A DNA stretch of 64,000 bases from Enterobacteria phage Kha5h. The notes under the pieces are model-generated. The model saw only the letters and a list, made by a program, of their open reading frames with translations. It did not search any database and was not told the origin of the DNA. This document shows, piece after piece, positions 47,278 to 54,477 of this stretch (position 1 is its first letter; every line of letters begins with the position of its first letter). Where the stretch lies: sequence record NC_054905.1; one strand, written 5' to 3'. The position numbers and the translations under genes are program-made.

Positions 47278-48242
47278 TGTATTCTTTAGAGGAATTTAAT
47301 AATCAAGCAATAAACGCAGATTTCCAACGTAATAATATGTTTAGCTGCGTTTTTGCAACAACTCCATCAACTAAAAGCTCTTCGTTGATAAGTTCAATTA
47401 GCAACTTTTCTTATAATAACTTGGGCCTAAATTCAGATTGGTTAGGATTAACTCAAGGTGATATTAATCAGGGAATTACTACGCTAATTACAGCTGGCAC
47501 ACAAAAACTGATAAGAAAATCAGGGGTTAGTAAATATCTTATTGGTGCCATGAGTCAACGTACAGTTCAAAGTTTATTAGGCTCATTTACAGTTGGTACA
47601 TATTTAATTGACTTCTTTAACATGGCATATAACTCATCTGGATTGATGATATATTCTGTAAAAATGCCAGAGAATAGATTATCCTATGAAACTGACTGGA
47701 ACTATAATTCTCCTAATATTCGTATAACTGGGAGAGAATTAGACCCTTTGGTTATTTCATTTAGAATGGATTCAGAAGCTTGTAACTATCGTGCAATGCA
47801 AGACTGGGTTAACTCCGTTCAAGACCCAGTAACTGGATTACGTGCTTTGCCACAAGATGTCGAGGCAGATATTCAGGTTAATCTTCATTCTCGCAATGGA
47901 TTACCTCATACTGCGGTGATGTTCACTGGATGCATTCCAGTGTCAGTGAGCGCTCCTGAGTTATCATATGATGGAGATAACCAAATAACTACATTTGATG
48001 TTACTTTTGCGTATAGAGTCATGCAGGCTGGAGCGGTTGATAGACAAGCTGCGCTTGAATGGCTTGAATCTGCTGCTATAAATGGTATTCAAAGCGTTCT
48101 CGGAAATAGTGGAGGTGTTACTGGACTATCTAATTCGCTTTCACGACTTAGTAGATTAGGGGGAACTGCTGGAAGCATTTCAAACATTAATACTATGACG
48201 GGAATTGTCAATTCGCAAAGTAAAATATTAGGAGCAATATAA
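47277..48242 (+). CDS. 54: gp54 baseplate tail tube initiator
   Basis: 321 aa; terminator hairpin downstream. Confidence 0.93.
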   Translation: MYSLEEFNNQAINADFQRNNMFSCVFATTPSTKSSSLISSISNFSYNNLGLNSDWLGLTQGDINQGITTLITAGTQKLIRKSGVSKYLIGAMSQRTVQSLLGSFTVGTYLIDFFNMAYNSSGLMIYSVKMPENRLSYETDWNYNSPNIRITGRELDPLVISFRMDSEACNYRAMQDWVNSVQDPVTGLRALPQDVEADIQVNLHSRNGLPHTAVMFTGCIPVSVSAPELSYDGDNQITTFDVTFAYRVMQAGAVDRQAALEWLESAAINGIQSVLGNSGGVTGLSNSLSRLSRLGGTAGSISNINTMTGIVNSQSKILGAI

Positions 48243-48246
48243 CAAT

Positions 48247-48264
48247 GGGGACCTTTTGGTCCCC
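48247..48264. terminator. terminator between gene 54 (plus) and the convergent minus-strand block
   Basis: GGGGACC-TTTT-GGTCCCC followed by ATATTTTTATTT. Confidence 0.65.
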
Positions 48265-48270
48265 ATATTT

Positions 48271-48561
48271 TTATTTACGGAATGAAATAAAAGCAGCAAC
48301 TGAAGCAACTAAACTGTCTTCAATATAAACTTCAATTTTTACCGGAGCTTCTGACTCAAATTTACCTGTTACTACACCTTGGAAAATGCTTTCAGTCTGT
48401 TCTGGCTTTGAAAAATTTTCAGAAGGAAAAATTCCGAACTTTTTATCTGTTCCAAAAATTTTGATAAATTCATCATAAACTGCTTCATTAAAAGCGTTAT
48501 CAGCAGGAATAACGCCTTCAACTACAAGTTCTTGACCTAAAAAGCGTAAAGAAGATTTCAT
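48271..48561 (-). CDS. hypothetical protein (position of T4 alt.-3)
   Basis: 96 aa; early-promoter-like repeat cassette directly upstream. Confidence 0.55.
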   Translation of the reverse strand: MKSSLRFLGQELVVEGVIPADNAFNEAVYDEFIKIFGTDKKFGIFPSENFSKPEQTESIFQGVVTGKFESEAPVKIEVYIEDSLVASVAAFISFRK

Positions 48562-48568
48562 TTTGTGT

Positions 48569-48622
48569 TCCTCATGTTATGTCAGTAAGATTACTATAAC
48601 ACAACACGAGGGACTTGTAAAC
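48569..48622 (-). repeat. 54-bp repeat copy A (promoter-leader-RBS cassette)
   Basis: 53 of 54 nt identical to 63869-63922; ends 8 nt upstream of the 96-aa ORF ATG. Confidence 0.75.
48593..48621 (-). promoter_or_regulatory. early-promoter-like element within repeat copy A
   Basis: Minus strand GTTTACA then 17 nt then TATAGT, followed by a conserved leader and GAGG. Confidence 0.45.
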
Positions 48623-50679
48623 TACATCTTGAACTTTTTAGACATTCCGTTGATGTTAACCAAAGAAGCCAAGATTTGAGAAACTTCGTTTTCCTCTTCT
48701 TTTGATTCTTCTACAAGGAATTGATTAAACCCAGCCATTGGACGAACTTCACCAGTTTCCATTAGATGATCGCCATCATATACCGATTCTTCTAATTGTT
48801 CAGAAGGAGGAACGATTGTGCCTTCGATTAGATACTTGTTATAAGCAGTTTCTTTCATCATGTACGTGCTTACTTTATTAATCTTCAACAAAATTCCACG
48901 CGGTAGAATAACTTCAGCTTCTGATGGAAATCCTGATAAATGACCTGGAACGATAACTTTGATTCGTTCAGCCCCTTTAATTACCATACCTACGCTAGTT
49001 TCAGCATCTTCATTAGCATATGTAGAATGACTACCCATATGCATCAAATCTTCTGCATCAACGGAACCTTCTCCTTCACCAGAAAATACTGCGCCGGAAT
49101 CATCTAGAGCCATATAGTTTTTACCATGCTCACCGAAGATATTTGGTTTAAGCGATGTGGATACGAAGTTCTTGAAATAGAACATTTTATTTTCAATATT
49201 ATGACGTAAAGTTTTAAAGGTAACTTCTTGTCCGCGATAAAGCGTAGTTCCTGGAGGAAGAACTGAACCTTTAGCAAATGCAGAATCCAACGTCTCGATG
49301 TGCTTAATAGCTCGTTCCATATATTCTTCACGGGTAGAATCTGGTTTACCCAAAAGGAACGAGTTCATTTCAACATATGAATCTGCACAATAATCTTCAA
49401 TTACATCAGATTCAGCTTGAGTTAATCCTTTTGGAGTTACTTCAGTGCTTGCGTATTCATATGCCTGGGCAGCAGATTCATTAATCAATTTATAAATGCC
49501 ATTCATTACAAATTGAATAATAGCTGTCTTTTCATCTGGCGTAGCTTTAGAACCTTTAACTAAATCATTGATAATTTTCTTAATAACATCAAAGCTATTA
49601 GAAATATTAATATCAGCAAGATCGCTTAAAATTTTATCAGTTTTATAATCAAAGAATTCTTTATTCTTTAAATATTCTTGAGAACCTTGATATGTTATAT
49701 CGCTCTGCAACTTGATAGATGGATCACGTAAACGTGCATGGGCCAATGCAATATGATTTCGGAAGCTTTCTAGTTCATAATCGTTAGATTTAAAACTAGA
49801 AGCACTTCTCATACCACCGATAGCTCCTTTGCCGAAGTTGGAACCAATCTGAATAACGCCAGAGTTCATTGGTCCTTCTGCTTTATATACCGGAACTTTA
49901 GATTCAAACTCTTGATATTTCTTAGCGGCGAAGCTATCGCCCTGGAGTGAGGCATCGACAGTAGAATATTGAGCTTGCGCTGCTAATCGACGACTAATTT
50001 TAGTTTTCTGAATAACAGCTTGATCCGTGCGCTTATCATTTTCTAAAGCAATAGAAGCAGCAACAGCAACAGCTTTAGGAACAGCATTACCTGTTTTAAC
50101 ATCTACATAAACATCACCAACCTTTGATTCAACTTTTGTGAATAACTCAGTTGAAATAGGAGGTACACCTGGAATGTCTTCTAAATTGGCATTTTTACGG
50201 TAAACCATAATATATGCGTACTTTTTATCATAGTCCCAGATTTCCTTTAAAAGAACATATCGACCTGCTCCTTTAGTACGTACTAAACGGTCAGCAATAA
50301 CTTGCATTTGACGAGCTGCGCCATTTGTTTTACTCTTTAGTACGCGGAATAGGCATGCGTCGATTTTATACTGCTTCATTGTTTGAAGAGCAGTATCAAA
50401 AACAGCATTAATGACGCCAATTGGATTTCCACCCAAGTTTCTAAGCTTAACCAGCGATAATTTCTCGTTGACACCTATCATTACGATATGCATCATTTTA
50501 TCGCCTGGCTTAACGTTTTTATTCGTATCACCACCAGAGGTGTATGTACAAAATCTAAATCCAGGAAGCACGCTTTCTTCGCCGGCTTGAATAGCAAAAA
50601 TTTGTGGTATTTTATGCTTAGGATTTAAGTTAACAACCGGCGCCGAAGCGCCGTCAAATAATTCTGTAATAAGTTCCAT
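48622..50679 (-). CDS. Alt-family ADP-ribosyltransferase paralog (685 aa)
   Basis: Shares the MELITELFD N-terminus and C-terminal motifs (YRG..., FVSTSL, EAEVILPRG) with the adjacent 698-aa protein; 3-nt gap from the upstream paralog. Confidence 0.8.
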   Translation of the reverse strand: MELITELFDGASAPVVNLNPKHKIPQIFAIQAGEESVLPGFRFCTYTSGGDTNKNVKPGDKMMHIVMIGVNEKLSLVKLRNLGGNPIGVINAVFDTALQTMKQYKIDACLFRVLKSKTNGAARQMQVIADRLVRTKGAGRYVLLKEIWDYDKKYAYIMVYRKNANLEDIPGVPPISTELFTKVESKVGDVYVDVKTGNAVPKAVAVAASIALENDKRTDQAVIQKTKISRRLAAQAQYSTVDASLQGDSFAAKKYQEFESKVPVYKAEGPMNSGVIQIGSNFGKGAIGGMRSASSFKSNDYELESFRNHIALAHARLRDPSIKLQSDITYQGSQEYLKNKEFFDYKTDKILSDLADINISNSFDVIKKIINDLVKGSKATPDEKTAIIQFVMNGIYKLINESAAQAYEYASTEVTPKGLTQAESDVIEDYCADSYVEMNSFLLGKPDSTREEYMERAIKHIETLDSAFAKGSVLPPGTTLYRGQEVTFKTLRHNIENKMFYFKNFVSTSLKPNIFGEHGKNYMALDDSGAVFSGEGEGSVDAEDLMHMGSHSTYANEDAETSVGMVIKGAERIKVIVPGHLSGFPSEAEVILPRGILLKINKVSTYMMKETAYNKYLIEGTIVPPSEQLEESVYDGDHLMETGEVRPMAGFNQFLVEESKEEENEVSQILASLVNINGMSKKFKM

Positions 50680-50682
50680 GAT

Positions 50683-52779
50683 TTATCCTTGAACGAACTT
50701 GTAAGGCATGTTTGTAATATCTATGCAAGACGCAATAATTCCAAGAGATGATTCGACTTTCTGTTTAACATTTGATGAAACAAATGATGCAAAATCAACT
50801 CTGTCTTCTATTTCAATATCACCTGTCATTGCAACTACTTCGCCGGTTTCCATTAAACGGTCTCCGTCATAGATTACCGATTCGGTGAGCTCTTCCGTGG
50901 TCATAACTTCAGCTTGAATGAGTTTTGTATTATTAGATGTTGTTCCGTCATTATTAGAAGCATCAGTTATTTTATTAACTTTGACCATCAATCCACGCGG
51001 TAGAATAACTTCAGCTTCTGTTGCTATTCCGAGACTTCCTGGATATACAACATTAACTTTATGAGCTCCATCAATTGCCCATCCTATTTGAACTTTAACG
51101 TATTCAGGATTTTCTTTATACGCTCTTATTTCGTTTGGATTAATAGTTATTCCTTCTTCATTTTTATCAACTGTTAATTCATTGCGAGCTTCTGGTTCTA
51201 AAAGACCAATACCAGCATGTGTAATTCCAAAACGTCCAAAAATGATAGGAGTTAAAGAAGTAGATACAAAATTTCTGAAGTAGAACACTTTATTTTTAAC
51301 TAACGCTTCATATATAGGAGCAGTCATACTTTGAGCACGATAAACTGTAATGCCTTCTGGTATACGGTCACCATTTTCAAAAGCTGAATCTAAGTTATTT
51401 ATAGCAGATTCAATTTCTTTTTCACTCATTACATCATATCGTTCTGGATTGTAACGACCTAAAAGAAGATTATTGATGTCAGTATATCCTGAACCGCAAT
51501 ATTCTCTAATGCCACGCTTTTGTGATGGAGTATATTTAGAACCATCGCGGGCAATAGTAATATCAATCATTGGACCAGCACCAATTCCAGAAAAACTGTA
51601 AATCATTCGTTTGAGGAATTTAGTTTTTGCTGCGTTCCAGAAATTTTTAGTTATTTCTTCCCAGACTTCATCTGGTTGTCCTTTACGATTTTTATTATGA
51701 TTAGCAAGCCATTTATCTTTATAATCTTCAAAGAATTGATTTACAGCTGCTGCGTATTTCTCTAAACATTTTATTGAAGTAGTTGGTTCATTTTTAATTG
51801 CATTAAAAATTACTTCTTTAATTTTTTCTGAAACTTCACCGACTTGACTCATTGGAAAGAATTTATAATCATAGTGAAGTTCATCTGCCGTTCCTTCAGC
51901 AATAATTTTTGCTGCCTTTGTTTTAGAAGCTAATGAATTAATTCCAATTTTCATTTCTTCTGCTTCGGGAATTAAAGGTGCAGTAGCTGGTTTATTAAAA
52001 TTAGCTGCTGTAGATTCATACTTCTGGAATAATTCACTTTCAAATCTAGAAGATTCCAATGACTGACTTTGTGCAATTGCTCTACGTGAAATTTTAACTT
52101 TAACGATTACAGCTTGGTCAGAACGTTTATCATTTTCTTGCGCAATAGATGCTGCAATTGCCTCATTTTTAGTTACTTGAGCTCCAGTATCTTTATTGAT
52201 ATAAACATCGCCGACTTTCGATTCAACTTTAGTAAAGAGCTCGGTACTAATTTCCGGAACTCCTGGAATGTCTTCTAGTGATACATTTTTGCGATGTATA
52301 AGAATATATGCATACTTTTTATCATAATCCCAGAGTTCCTTAAGAAGGACGTATCTGCCACCTGAACGACTACGGATAAGTCTATCAGCAATAACTTGAA
52401 TTTGTCGAGCTTGACCAGCGGTTTTAGACTTAAGAATACGGAGCATACAGGCATCAATTTTATACTGACGCATTGTTTGCATTGCAACAGTAAAAACTGA
52501 ATTGATATAATTAATTGGGCTTGGACCAAGACCTTTTAATTTAGCAATTGAACCTTTAGCAGTTAATGTAAAAGGAACAATATGCATCATTTTATCGCCC
52601 ATCTTTAAATCGCGATTAGTATCACCTCCAGATGTATAGGTACATAAACGAAAGCCTGGCTGTTCAATTGCATCATCAACGTGAACTGAAAAAATTTGCG
52701 GTATTTTCTTCTTTGGATTTAAGTTTGTAATCGGAAGAGTAGTATCTTCGTCAAATAATTCTGTAATAAGTTCCATCAT
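50683..52779 (-). CDS. alt: Alt ADP-ribosyltransferase (head-packaged, injected)
   Basis: 698 aa; motifs VYRAQS, FVSTSL, TEAEVILPRG; TATAAATA 21 nt upstream; adjacent to gene 30 as in T4. Confidence 0.8.
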   Translation of the reverse strand: MMELITELFDEDTTLPITNLNPKKKIPQIFSVHVDDAIEQPGFRLCTYTSGGDTNRDLKMGDKMMHIVPFTLTAKGSIAKLKGLGPSPINYINSVFTVAMQTMRQYKIDACMLRILKSKTAGQARQIQVIADRLIRSRSGGRYVLLKELWDYDKKYAYILIHRKNVSLEDIPGVPEISTELFTKVESKVGDVYINKDTGAQVTKNEAIAASIAQENDKRSDQAVIVKVKISRRAIAQSQSLESSRFESELFQKYESTAANFNKPATAPLIPEAEEMKIGINSLASKTKAAKIIAEGTADELHYDYKFFPMSQVGEVSEKIKEVIFNAIKNEPTTSIKCLEKYAAAVNQFFEDYKDKWLANHNKNRKGQPDEVWEEITKNFWNAAKTKFLKRMIYSFSGIGAGPMIDITIARDGSKYTPSQKRGIREYCGSGYTDINNLLLGRYNPERYDVMSEKEIESAINNLDSAFENGDRIPEGITVYRAQSMTAPIYEALVKNKVFYFRNFVSTSLTPIIFGRFGITHAGIGLLEPEARNELTVDKNEEGITINPNEIRAYKENPEYVKVQIGWAIDGAHKVNVVYPGSLGIATEAEVILPRGLMVKVNKITDASNNDGTTSNNTKLIQAEVMTTEELTESVIYDGDRLMETGEVVAMTGDIEIEDRVDFASFVSSNVKQKVESSLGIIASCIDITNMPYKFVQG

Positions 52780-52799
52780 AGCCTCTCTAGTGTTTATTC

Positions 52800-52807
52800 T
52801 ATTTATA
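52800..52807 (-). promoter_or_regulatory. late promoter box (minus strand) for alt
   Basis: Plus-strand TATTTATA 21 nt upstream of the 698-aa Alt start. Confidence 0.6.
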
Positions 52808-52812
52808 AAATT

Positions 52813-52830
52813 AAAGGCCCGAAGGCCTTT
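52813..52830 (-). terminator. hairpin between the 62-aa ORF and alt
   Basis: AAAGGCC-CGAA-GGCCTTT; on the minus strand it is followed by AAUUUUAUAAAUA, which contains the alt late promoter box. Confidence 0.5.
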
Positions 52831-53017
52831 AGTAATCTAGTGGTAAGAGAGTACGATATATTTCAAACTTTGGTCCTTTTTCATAGGCATCAAATGTTTC
52901 TGTAAATTTATTATAAGCGTATGCATCTACAAATTCGAGAATGACTTGTGATACAGAAGTAGAAACATCTCCACCTTCTTTTTGAGCAATGACAATTGTT
53001 TCTAAGTAAGCTTTCAT
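52829..53017 (-). CDS. hypothetical small protein
   Basis: 62 aa; start overlaps the gene 30 stop by 4 nt; terminator hairpin at its 3' end. Confidence 0.45.
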   Translation of the reverse strand: MKAYLETIVIAQKEGGDVSTSVSQVILEFVDAYAYNKFTETFDAYEKGPKFEIYRTLLPLDY

Positions 53018-54477
53018 AGACCAGTTACCTCATGAAAATCACCAAATACATCCTCGAATGTATTAGCTTTAGTTTTATCTTCACGTAAACGAATCGCAAT
53101 CGGAAGAAATAATTTAACGTAATCAGTGCGGCCATCAGATTTTAACCAACCGTTGCATTCGCACTCTAGAATTTTTCCAATATAATAATTTTGGTTTTCC
53201 ATAATGCGAGTACGGTCAAGCTCATGTGATTTTACGCCGGCTTTATCTTTTAAGCCTGAACCAGCATTTACTTTAATTTTTCCACATTCTGATTCAAGAA
53301 TAAATCCACCCGCTTTAGTAGGGTCTTTACGGTGAGGATAAATTCCTACAATTTTTAAATCAACATCAATTACTTCTTTAAATTTATAAAGATTTTTTGA
53401 ACGAGCATTTTCCCATAATCCATCGATATTTTTGAGAATAATACCTTCAAGACCTTGGTCAATATACTTTTTGTAAATTACCTTAGCTTCATCTAGGTTA
53501 TTTACTACTTGGTTTTCAATTAAAATTACTTTATCATAGCCTGATGTCATTTGTTCTAGTTTAGAAAAACGTACATCATATTTTAAACGAAACGCTGGAA
53601 GACCATATATTTCTACTAATGGAACATAGTCCCAGACCTGAAACTTCATGCATTGAGCTTCTTTTTCAGAAATGGTTCCTTTTAAGGATTTATTGGCGAT
53701 TCCATTAGAAGTAGTACGAGATTCCGCTACTTCGGCGAATTCTTTAGCTTTACTAATTTTAGGATAAGCATCAAAAAGAAAATCTAGGCCTTCTGGTTCC
53801 TTTTTAACTTGCTCATGGTATACCAATTCGCCATCAATTAACACACCTTCTGGATGAATCTGGCGAGCTTCTGCAGTCATTTTGATTAACTCTTCCTTGA
53901 GAAGATCTAATCCTAGATATTCATTACCAGCTCGTGATAAAAGACGAACATCATCTAATTCATCACCTCTGACTTCAGCAAAGCACCGAGCTCCATCAGC
54001 TTTTAATTGGGCAAAGGCTGGAAATTTGATATTCTTATTAATGCCTTTTTCATCATAAGAACTTGCCAGCATTTGAGGTTGTTCAGGAATTAAACCTGGC
54101 CAAACTTTGTTTGCAATAGATACTGATGCACCACATTCAAGGTCTCGCATCATCACCCGACGCAAAACTTCAACATCATCTTTTTTACCGTCAGCAATAT
54201 ATCCAGTTAATTCCTCAATTGCCGCATTTCCTGTCAATTTCCGAGTAGCTAACGTGAATTCAATGAAGTCAAGCATATCGGTAAGAGTCAACATTCCAAA
54301 ACTCTGGGTAGCAATACCCGGTTTAGGCCATTTCTTGATATAATACTGTAACCCACGAGAATAAGTCAGACGATATACTCGTTTAAGCAATTCATTATCT
54401 TTATTCTTTTCAAGAATTGCTTGCTTCTGCTTAGTTGAACCAATAGATGCTATTTCGTTCAGAATTTTAAGAATCAT
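53014..54477 (-). CDS. 30: gp30 ATP-dependent DNA ligase
   Basis: 487 aa; adenylation motif KADGAR. Confidence 0.95.
   Translation of the reverse strand: MILKILNEIASIGSTKQKQAILEKNKDNELLKRVYRLTYSRGLQYYIKKWPKPGIATQSFGMLTLTDMLDFIEFTLATRKLTGNAAIEELTGYIADGKKDDVEVLRRVMMRDLECGASVSIANKVWPGLIPEQPQMLASSYDEKGINKNIKFPAFAQLKADGARCFAEVRGDELDDVRLLSRAGNEYLGLDLLKEELIKMTAEARQIHPEGVLIDGELVYHEQVKKEPEGLDFLFDAYPKISKAKEFAEVAESRTTSNGIANKSLKGTISEKEAQCMKFQVWDYVPLVEIYGLPAFRLKYDVRFSKLEQMTSGYDKVILIENQVVNNLDEAKVIYKKYIDQGLEGIILKNIDGLWENARSKNLYKFKEVIDVDLKIVGIYPHRKDPTKAGGFILESECGKIKVNAGSGLKDKAGVKSHELDRTRIMENQNYYIGKILECECNGWLKSDGRTDYVKLFLPIAIRLREDKTKANTFEDVFGDFHEVTGL

Follow-up and report, generated by a model that had tools for sequence, protein, structure and literature searches.

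Two tandem Alt-family ADP-ribosyltransferase genes make up the common complete alt locus in the Tequatrovirus Kha5h

Enterobacteria phage Kha5h carries the common complete form of the Tequatrovirus alt locus, which consists of two tandem paralogues, alt (encoding Alt1) and alt2 (encoding Alt2). The locus was analyzed within a window of 64,000 nucleotides of the phage genome (NC_054905.1), and its features are collected in Table 1. On the sequence and by analogy with T4, both proteins would very probably be made late from one promoter, packaged in the head, trimmed, and injected, and would modify different host proteins. The tandem pair itself is already known; it is annotated in hundreds of records, was discussed in 2006 and 2026, and has been noted in print (PMC1524935, PMC13600099).

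The open reading frames lie on the minus strand at 50683..52779 (698 aa) and 48622..50679 (685 aa), and only three nucleotides (ATC) run from the alt TAA to the alt2 ATG, confirming the arrangement of two adjacent genes described in a first-pass annotation. They sit between DNA ligase/alt.1 and alt.-3/gp54, which matches the position of the T4 Alt family. In other records alt2 goes by the name alt.-2 (RB14) or "Alt-like" (RefSeq). The start of alt is likely the second ATG (MELITE...), because a Shine–Dalgarno GAGG at 52785..52782 is 5 nt from this codon and 2 nt from the first, and because RefSeq annotates RB18 and RB14 in the same way. The junction between the genes, CAAGGATAAATCATG, is 100% conserved in seven Tequatrovirus loci, including T4 alt/alt.-1, and in QL01 both alt junctions read CAAGGGTAAATAATG. 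Translation of alt2 would begin from the AAGGA Shine–Dalgarno sequence inside the last alt codons, and the two genes are probably translationally coupled.

Table 1. Features of the alt locus of Kha5h, in window coordinates
Feature	Position	Strand	Description
Terminator-like hairpin	52812..52831	-	AAAGGCCTTCGGGCCTTT plus T run; ends the upstream ligase/alt.1 transcription unit
T4-type late promoter box of alt	52807..52800	-	TATAAATA; overlaps the terminator T run
alt (Alt1)	50683..52776	-	697 aa from the second ATG (likely start); ORF list, Pfam, PHROG
Variable effector cassette of Alt1	50881..52038	-	aa 247-632; helical region and ADP-ribosyltransferase (ART) domain
Second exact TATAAATA	51403..51396	-	Lies within the alt reading frame, where it encodes A-I-N-N
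Junction AAGGA-TAA-ATC	50680..50690	-	alt2 Shine–Dalgarno in the last alt codons, alt stop, 3-nt spacer
alt2 (Alt2)	48622..50679	-	685 aa; second Alt-family ADP-ribosyltransferase (predicted)
alt2 N-terminal alpha/beta domain	49969..50679	-	aa 1-237; starts with a propeptide of 6 aa (MELITE)
alt2 central helical region	49435..49968	-	aa 238-415; predicted all-helical
alt2 ADP-ribosyltransferase domain	48787..49434	-	aa 416-631; R482, S507-T-S509, E587-x-E589
alt2 predicted C-terminal propeptide	48625..48786	-	aa 632-685, after the LEE-631 motif
Stretch missing from T4	48641..50340	-	1.7 kb between 9-nt direct repeats
Intergenic region after alt2	48570..48621	-	Early-type promoter and hairpin
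Early-type promoter for alt.-3	48621..48593	-	TTTACA-17-TATAGT
Hairpin before alt.-3	48611..48570	-	Pairs CCUC with the alt.-3 Shine–Dalgarno GAGG; MFE -26 kcal/mol, z = -4.4

A search for TATAAATA bears out the earlier observation that a late promoter stands directly upstream of the first gene only. The box precedes the first ATG by 20 nt and the second by 23 nt, and it is identical in seven Tequatrovirus loci. The hairpin that closes the ligase/alt.1 unit is conserved in T4, RB18, RB14, AR1, Sf23, and slur07 and takes a variant form in QL01 and SP18. In T4, alt is a late gene (transcript t7, protein t8; PMC9697503). By the proposed route, gp55-directed RNA polymerase would start at TATAAATA late in infection, just behind the alt.1 terminator, and would transcribe alt and alt2 as one message. 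We infer this co-transcription because a terminator scan of the same locus found none between the two genes and because their 3-nt junction is conserved. A second exact TATAAATA lies within alt, 716 nt upstream of the alt2 ATG. It is found only in the T2/T6-type alt cassette and is absent in T4 and AR1. AR1 keeps alt2 all the same. The internal box is probably a coding coincidence and not a required promoter; in the T2/T6-type allele it could give alt2 a separate late transcript.

Alt1 is the orthologue of T4 Alt (NP_049811, gpAlt), a head-packaged NAD+–arginine ADP-ribosyltransferase, and the two share the locus, late promoter, terminator, three-part build, catalytic residues, and gp21 sites. 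Unlike T4, Kha5h has a T2/T6-type cassette in Alt1 and a second protein, Alt2, that is 42% identical to T4 Alt end to end (E = 5e-157) with an unrelated center. Alt1 and Alt2 are themselves 41% identical by BLASTP (E = 2e-158). Both match the PF03496 ADPrib_exo_Tox family well above its curated cut-off of 23.4 bits (Alt1, 127.5 bits, E = 5e-37; Alt2, 72.6 bits, E = 4e-20), and both belong to PHROG 802 (E = 1e-272 and 3.6e-256, respectively). All homologues carry precomputed PF26846 and PF03496 matches. The first-pass annotation had assigned both genes to the Alt family with shared YRA/YRG, FVSTSL, and EAEVILPRG motifs, and these are present in both proteins (YRAQ-479, FVSTSL-503, and EAEVILPRG-587 in Alt1; YRGQ-481, FVSTSL-505, and EAEVILPRG-587 in Alt2). 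Its concern that the 685-aa protein might lack an intact R-S-E triad can be set aside, as the triad is intact in Alt2, and R482, S507, S509, E587, and E589 are invariant in two alignments of 17 and 20 family members.

Confidence in the full-length structural model is only moderate (pLDDT 73), and the predicted fold of the catalytic domain matches those of Vis, C3, Certhrax, and VIP2. An ARTT motif with E-x-E rather than Q-x-E predicts arginine specificity. Alt1 and Alt2 are therefore predicted to be Alt-family, arginine-specific mono-ADP-ribosyltransferases. Related enzymes differ from the pair in other respects. The bacterial toxins Vis, C3bot, Certhrax, CDTa, iota, and VIP2 are only 14-23% identical, lack the Alt N-terminal domain, and are delivered by secretion or as binary toxins, not from a phage head. 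T4 ModA and ModB also belong to the R-S-E clade and target host proteins involved in transcription and translation (PMC3014915, PMC9503650), but these small early proteins are synthesized once infection has begun, are unpackaged, and have neither the N-terminal domain nor propeptides.

Alt1 and Alt2 appear to have the same kind of N-terminal alpha/beta domain and a propeptide at each end. The resemblance of the N termini that was first noticed by eye extends over residues 1-237 (67-68% identity), and the first nine residues of Alt2 are those of Alt. Modeled alone, the alt2 N-terminal domain is predicted with AlphaFold pLDDT 84 and pTM 0.83. Its family is narrow, with 69 representative clusters among 1.84 billion proteins, and the domain is always N-terminal. 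In T4 Alt, mass spectrometry placed the gp21 cleavage sites at ITE-6 and LTE-619, with 63 residues removed to give a 68.2-kDa protein (PMC5694885), and the mass computed here for the trimmed T4 protein is the same as published. Aligned with these sites are gp21 motifs at ITE-6 and LTE-632 in Alt1 and at ITE-6 and LEE-631 in Alt2, as judged by motif presence only. E631 is invariant across the family and aligns with LTE-619 of T4 Alt, and the Alt2 tail that follows is disordered in the model (pLDDT < 50). Trimming by gp21 after these motifs would leave proteins of ~70 and 69 kDa. Each T4 head contains ~40 copies of Alt (PMC9026906). Given that Alt2 keeps both gp21 motifs, co-packaging and co-injection of the two proteins is plausible. 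The T4 internal proteins IPI–IPIII are similar in joining a gp21-removed head-delivery signal to varied injected effectors (PMC3012670, PMC9026906), but their signal is a propeptide of ~10 residues, whereas that of Alt is a folded domain of ~230 residues in a protein cut at both ends.

Alt2 might instead stay out of the head and act late in the producing cell on host or phage proteins, with an N-terminal domain that does not serve head targeting. This fits with the structure comparison, which found no convincing structural relative of the N-terminal domain, and with a literature search that found no proteomic or biochemical study of Alt2 (virion presence, cleavage, injection, or activity) and thus no published demonstration of its packaging. 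It is very unlikely, however, since both gp21 motifs are retained in exact alignment, the start of the protein is identical to that of Alt, and alt2 lies within the late unit of a known head protein.

The first-pass annotation left open whether the duplication exists in reference T4 or is specific to Kha5h. Genome and BLASTP comparison settles the question: Most of the genus carries the pair, and an intact second copy is missing from reference T4. Intact alt2 is found in ~400 phage records, including T6, at 95-99% DNA identity, with the protein mostly >95% identical and recovered as a single tblastn piece. What T4 holds in its place is alt.-1 and alt.-2 (NP_049810, NP_049809), which follow the same alt junction, correspond to the 5' 350 nt of alt2 at ~95% identity, and include a 1-nt frameshift. 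The missing 1.7 kb is bounded by the direct repeats CTAAAGAGT (50340..50332) and CTAAAAAGT (48641..48633). The T4-type deletion junction occurs in 91 records, wild isolates included. The T4 annotation treats alt.-1/alt.-2 as an old partial duplication of alt ("duplication of the first part of alt"), but the better reading is that a full-length paralogue, still carried by most relatives, gave rise to them by deletion.

Across six intact orthologues the dN/dS of alt2 is 0.03-0.06, and the gene is under strong purifying selection. Its loss from T4 and from 90 other records shows that its function is conditionally dispensable, and dispensable in the laboratory. One could take the deleted, frameshifted remnants to mean that alt2 is a duplicate in decay, heading for the T4 state, but this idea has next to no probability. 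All six orthologues examined are intact with low dN/dS, full-length copies exist in ~400 records, the Alt2 catalytic residues are intact, and the same 161-nt deletion junction recurs in the remnants checked. The common junction points to a single event that spread, not to repeated decay, and loss of alt2 in T4 and ~18% of sequenced relatives comes down to one microhomology-flanked 1.7-kb deletion.

While alt2 is nearly invariant, alt swaps cassettes, which suggests that the two genes are under different selective regimes. Alt1 is 70% identical to T4 Alt overall and ~100% identical over residues 1-246, and the difference is concentrated in the effector cassette (middle, 30% identity; ART domain, 66%; dS > 1) between flanks of 94-100%. 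The genus has two deep cassette alleles, the T2/T6-type found in Kha5h (329 records) and the T4 allele (175 records). The type of alt cassette and the presence or deletion of alt2 occur in all four combinations.

The same modular nature is seen across genera. QL01, SP18 (Gaprivervirus; alta, altb), 44RR (ORF187c/188c), and RB49 (ORF183c) have the same locus, tight junctions, and architecture (PMC1524935), and the tandem arrays of other Tevenvirinae differ from the Kha5h pair in holding from one to three copies. Dhakavirus QL01 has three tandem alt copies and SP18 has two. The first QL01 copy is of the Alt1 type and the last of the Alt2 type: The Alt1 ART part is 94% identical in amino acids (89% in nucleotides) to the first copy, and the alt2 center is 45% identical to the third. 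N-terminal domains follow genus (41-48% identity between genera), whereas central and catalytic parts follow type, with at least three types found across genera. Comparison of the sequences thus marks alt2 as an old paralogue, not a recent duplicate, with an effector part nearest to the third Dhakavirus alt copy.

The expectation that the centers of Alt1 and Alt2 diverge was partly upheld. Residues 238-415 are dissimilar (21-22% identity), and a profile–profile check detected no similarity between the centers (hhalign probability 0.4%). The divergence reaches beyond residues 230-470, however, as the catalytic domains are only 36% identical, most strongly diverged between STS and ExE; the C-terminal tails are 42-43% identical. 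Upon injection with the DNA, both proteins would ADP-ribosylate host proteins on arginine before phage gene expression. With centers that lack detectable similarity and a differing substrate-facing part of the catalytic domain, Alt1 and Alt2 would most likely differ in the host proteins that they modify, and it is this divergence that suggests a substrate specificity of its own for Alt2. T4 Alt modifies ~27 proteins in vitro (PMC3014915), so overlap between the two target sets is possible.

At the far end of such overlap, Alt2 would be a redundant or dosage copy that is packaged, injected, and modifies the same secondary targets as Alt along with the key target, RNA polymerase alpha at Arg265; the pair would then do no more than increase or safeguard the activity that is injected. 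ADP-ribosylation of this residue is a biochemical property of T4 Alt. The common catalytic residues and E-x-E arginine-type motif, the shared N-terminal domain and propeptides, and the growth of T4 without alt2 would all be accounted for. Redundancy is nonetheless decidedly unlikely when identity across the effector parts is only 21-36%, when the centers show no detectable similarity, and when Alt1 exchanges cassettes while Alt2 stays nearly constant. The paralogue also predates the split of Tequatrovirus and Dhakavirus, and its low dN/dS would be unusual for pure redundancy.

Distinct targets need not lie in transcription. Alt2 could be an injected counter-defense effector that disarms an immunity or toxin–antitoxin protein, with its presence or absence tracking hosts. 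Delivery before gene expression fits with such a role, MazF is a reported substrate of T4 Alt (Alawneh et al. 2016, as cited in PMC9697503), and the neighboring alt.-3 can mutate to block the CmdTAC defense (PMC11618068). The locus is also polymorphic, with ~400 intact and 91 deleted records and every combination with the alt cassettes. However, the high DNA identity among alt2 copies is atypical for an arms-race effector, and this role seems somewhat unlikely.

The broader reading, that the alt locus is a modular effector array, is offered tentatively, with the balance somewhat against it. A genus-specific N-terminal module, with two removable propeptides, would serve head delivery, central and ART cassettes of at least three ancient types would be exchanged between genera behind it, and the arrays would hold one to three copies. 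The most conserved member of the array, Alt2, would act on a host target of its own, perhaps a defense or stress protein. Such a target would have escaped notice for 50 years because T4, the model phage, deleted the gene.

Almost all knowledge of injected phage ADP-ribosyltransferases comes from T4, which has a minority genotype with no intact alt2 and the rarer alt cassette. In most T-even relatives, including T6 and many therapeutic isolates, infection probably starts with the injection of two different ADP-ribosyltransferases. Should Alt2 act on targets of its own, T4-based models of host takeover would be incomplete for most of the genus. Phages with or without alt2, and with either alt cassette, provide a clean natural experiment.

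The tandem pair consists of alt, the orthologue of T4 alt, and a downstream paralogue, alt2, which encode Alt1 and Alt2. The first-pass annotation had described two adjacent minus-strand Alt-family ADP-ribosyltransferase (ART) genes of 698 and 685 aa separated by 3 nt, and the ORF list and the sequence (TAA-ATC-ATG at the gap) bear this out, except that the first protein is more likely 697 aa long. Its probable start is the second ATG, as judged from Shine–Dalgarno spacing and from where RefSeq begins the gene in RB18 and RB14. The neighboring genes fix the identity of the locus, with DNA ligase gp30 and alt.1 upstream and, downstream, alt.-3 and then baseplate genes 54 and 48 in convergent orientation. 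Alt1 and Alt2 align over their full length at 41% identity (BLASTP, E = 2e-158), which rules out chance as the source of their likeness. Both match PF03496 (ADP-ribosyltransferase exoenzyme) far over the Pfam threshold and belong to PHROG 802, "Alt-like RNA polymerase ADP-ribosyltransferase"; no NCBIfam model was found for the pair, and no Rfam RNA family within 48000..53300. The transferase motifs quoted in the first-pass annotation are all present in both proteins: the arginine motif (YRAQ-479 in Alt1, YRGQ-481 in Alt2), the STS motif (FVSTSL-503 and FVSTSL-505), and EAEVILPRG-587 in both alike. Alignments of 17 and 20 family members show no variation at the Arg, at either Ser, or at either Glu, and the catalytic R-S-E residues are intact in the 685-aa protein. 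Plus-strand ORFs of 54–59 aa within the two genes were taken as chance ORFs.

Coordinates of the alt–alt2 locus and its flanking elements
Feature	Position	Strand	Details
alt, from first ATG	50683..52779	minus	698 aa
alt, from probable start (second ATG, 52776)	50683..52776	minus	697 aa
alt2	48622..50679	minus	685 aa
alt effector cassette	50881..52038	minus	T2/T6 type
Terminator-like hairpin	52831..52812	minus	upstream of late box
Late promoter box TATAAATA	52807..52800	minus	directly after terminator-like hairpin
Second exact TATAAATA	51403..51396	minus	inside alt
DNA absent from T4, as searched	48700..50300		
9-nt direct repeat CTAAAGAGT	50340..50332		flanks T4 skip
9-nt direct repeat CTAAAAAGT	48641..48633		flanks T4 skip
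Early-type promoter and strong hairpin	within 48570..48621	minus	TTTACA-17-TATAGT; −26 kcal/mol, z = −4.4
alt.-3	48271..48561	minus	96 aa; Pfam DUF5498; PHROG 1739
Hairpin, perfect 9-bp stem	48245..48266		between convergent 54 (+) and alt.-3 (−)
alt.1	52829..53017	minus	62 aa; Pfam "Phage blade protein" PF24647, E = 2e-29

The possibility that both are ordinary T4 genes does not hold, as T4 keeps only alt and a remnant. In T4 (NC_000866), two small ORFs, alt.-1 and alt.-2, come after alt (682 aa); the T4 annotation takes them for an old duplicate of the start of alt. Alignment of T4 with the window identifies them as the first ~350 nt of alt2, at ~95% identity, with the frame of the remnant split by a 1-nt deletion (AATAAAAACG to AAT-AAAACG). 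From there the T4 sequence skips to the last ~20 nt of alt2, and the skip is flanked by 9-nt direct repeats. This jump between repeats leaves T4 without 1.7 kb of a formerly full-length gene. The intact gene carries the name alt.-2 in RB14.

The DNA absent from T4 is found in 404 phage records, 400 of them nearly full length, at 95–99% identity. At the protein level, Alt2 is found at an identity of at least 90% in ~400 records (tblastn), as a single unbroken piece in 20 of 20 such records among the matches listed. The T4-type deletion junction is covered in full in 91 records, and its carriers include the wild isolates ACG-C40, HY03, slur03/14, SG1, RB55, and RB59. These counts make the tandem pair the majority state of the genus, by roughly 4:1, and the T4 state is one deletion circulating in nature. 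Phage T6 has the same layout as the window (697 and 685 aa).

Most T4 relatives carry the pair as a regular, annotated part of their gene set. In RefSeq both genes go by the name "Alt-like RNA polymerase ADP-ribosyltransferase," and the Sf23 record sets the second one apart as "distinct from ... T4 Alt." Nolan et al. in 2006 gave alt paralogues for T4, RB49, and 44RR (PMC1524935). A 2026 paper pointed out that a Tequatrovirus has two Alt-like paralogues, 43% identical, and speculated that such a pair may expand the target range (PMC13600099). That Alt1 and Alt2 may have different targets, as also proposed from their divergent middles in the first-pass annotation, is a reasonable idea. Literature searches turned up no proteomic study of virions and no biochemical study that covered the second Alt. 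The present analysis adds the exact relation to T4 alt.-1 and alt.-2, the population frequencies, a selection signal, conserved processing sites, and a modular cassette pattern.

A decaying duplicate would be one explanation for a second copy that T4 has lost. Across six alt2 orthologues (window, RB18, RB14, AR1, Sf23, and slur07), the gene is intact in all six, and pairwise dN/dS is 0.03–0.06 at dS of 0.09–0.22. Constraint extends to every segment, the ratio being lowest in the N-terminal domain (0.012) and highest in the center (0.098), and decay is thereby ruled out.

In T4, alt is a late gene (PMC9697503). The order of terminator hairpin, TATAAATA (the T4-type late promoter box), GAGG, and alt is kept in seven Tequatrovirus loci. 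The late box reported upstream of the first gene only is indeed there, with a second exact copy inside that gene. A separate late promoter for alt2 at this internal box was considered; the box is confined to the window-type alt allele and is missing from AR1, which carries alt2, so alt2 expression does not require it. On the coding strand, no terminator-like site lies between or within the two genes. The junction CAAGGATAAATCATG, which puts the AAGGA Shine–Dalgarno sequence of alt2 into the last alt codons, is 100% identical in seven of seven Tequatrovirus loci, T4 among them, and Dhakavirus QL01 has a near-identical junction twice. Given the absence of a terminator and the conserved junction, the simplest reading is that alt and alt2 are probably cotranscribed from the alt late promoter with coupled translation.

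Directly past the alt2 stop codon lie an early-type promoter and a strong hairpin, nearly identical in T4. The −10 box sits in the 5' arm of the hairpin (CCUC...), which pairs with the alt.-3 Shine–Dalgarno sequence GAGG. Transcripts from the early-type promoter would lack this arm and leave the alt.-3 ribosome site free, late read-through from alt and alt2 would sequester it, and the net effect would be to confine alt.-3 translation to early times. Mutants of T4 alt.-3 with a C-terminal extension escape the CmdTAC defense, blocking CmdA degradation (PMC11618068). Farther downstream, the 9-bp-stem hairpin has a T run on the plus strand only and thus appears well suited to terminating the late baseplate transcript and ill suited to terminating the one from the alt side. 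At the other end, there is a 4-nt overlap between alt.1 and the ligase stop codon, and the terminator hairpin comes shortly after the end of alt.1.

In an AlphaFold model (mean pLDDT 73), Alt2 has an N-terminal alpha/beta domain (residues 1–225), a poorly modeled linker (227–240), a helical region (about 240–470), an ART core (470–625), and a disordered tail (629–685); a sequence search found no solved Alt structure. The N-terminal domain is shared by few proteins, with only 69 matching clusters among 1.84 billion representative proteins. Full-length matches carry it at residues ~1–240 of proteins of roughly 600–710 aa, and the others are shorter fragments. Ten remote homologues gave no evidence for fusion to non-ART effectors: PF03496 is above cut-off in six and just under it in a 461-aa fragment, and the ART domain is C-terminal in most of them. 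The remaining three (P0183, 485 aa; P0184, 541 aa; P0185, 221 aa; 23–27% identity to the N-terminal domain) have no Pfam hit, and their C-terminal parts could hold either highly diverged ARTs or effectors of another kind. The final 97 residues of Alt2 also have a 100% identical match in a 32-kb record of a Staphylococcus phage (SAJK-IND, MG010123.1, 31880..32170), right at its end, most likely through contamination or chimeric assembly of that record.

About 40 copies of T4 Alt reside in the prohead core (PMC9026906). By mass spectrometry, the prohead protease gp21 cuts after ITE-6, taking off six residues, and after LTE-619, taking off 63, to give a 68.2-kDa product (PMC5694885), a mass reproduced by calculation for residues 7–619. 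The corresponding sites are ITE-6 and LTE-632 in Alt1 (predicted mature mass 70.2 kDa) and ITE-6 and LEE-631 in Alt2 (69.1 kDa). The Glu of the C-terminal site does not vary within the family (17- and 20-member alignments), and residues 1–9 are identical in Alt1 and Alt2. Mainly on the strength of these shared signals, Alt2 is predicted to be packaged, trimmed, and injected as Alt is.

Alt1 and T4 Alt share about 100% amino acid identity in the N-terminal domain (1–246), 30% in the central region (247–415), 66% in the ART domain (416–632; dS saturated), and 94% in the C-terminal propeptide (633–697). The alt gene thus exists as two deep alleles of an effector cassette, the central helical region plus ART domain, in otherwise near-identical flanks. 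The window-type cassette is found in 329 records, including T2 and T6, and the T4 type in 175. All four combinations with the state of alt2 occur: the T2/T6 type with alt2 (window) or the deletion (slur14), and the T4 type with alt2 (AR1) or the deletion (T4).

The same locus holds three tandem alt copies in Dhakavirus QL01, two in Gaprivervirus SP18, and one plus a short ART gene in Krischvirus MIZ2. The N-terminal domain groups by genus (67% identity between Alt1 and Alt2, 67–89% among the QL01 copies, just 41–48% between genera), whereas the effector part groups by type across genera. Alt2 and QL01 copy 3 share 45% in the center and 60% in the ART domain; QL01 copy 2 and SP18 altb share 83% and 77%. 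Between Alt1 and QL01 copy 1 the ART domains are 94% identical in amino acids and 89% in nucleotides, and the N-terminal domains only 48%, which suggests cross-genus exchange of the effector part. Profile–profile comparison (hhalign) gave no similarity between the Alt2-type center and those of other types; homology of the Alt1 and Alt2 centers was set aside at an hhalign probability of 0.4%, with small, shallow profiles (Neff 2.7) that very remote homology could escape.

The domain pattern may have arisen by gene conversion of N-terminal domains or by horizontal transfer of cassettes. It fits a delivery module specific to the phage's own head and linked to exchangeable effector parts. A tentative proposal, which we put forward without favoring it, is that the locus is a modular cross-genus effector array, with the target of its most conserved member overlooked because T4 lost it.
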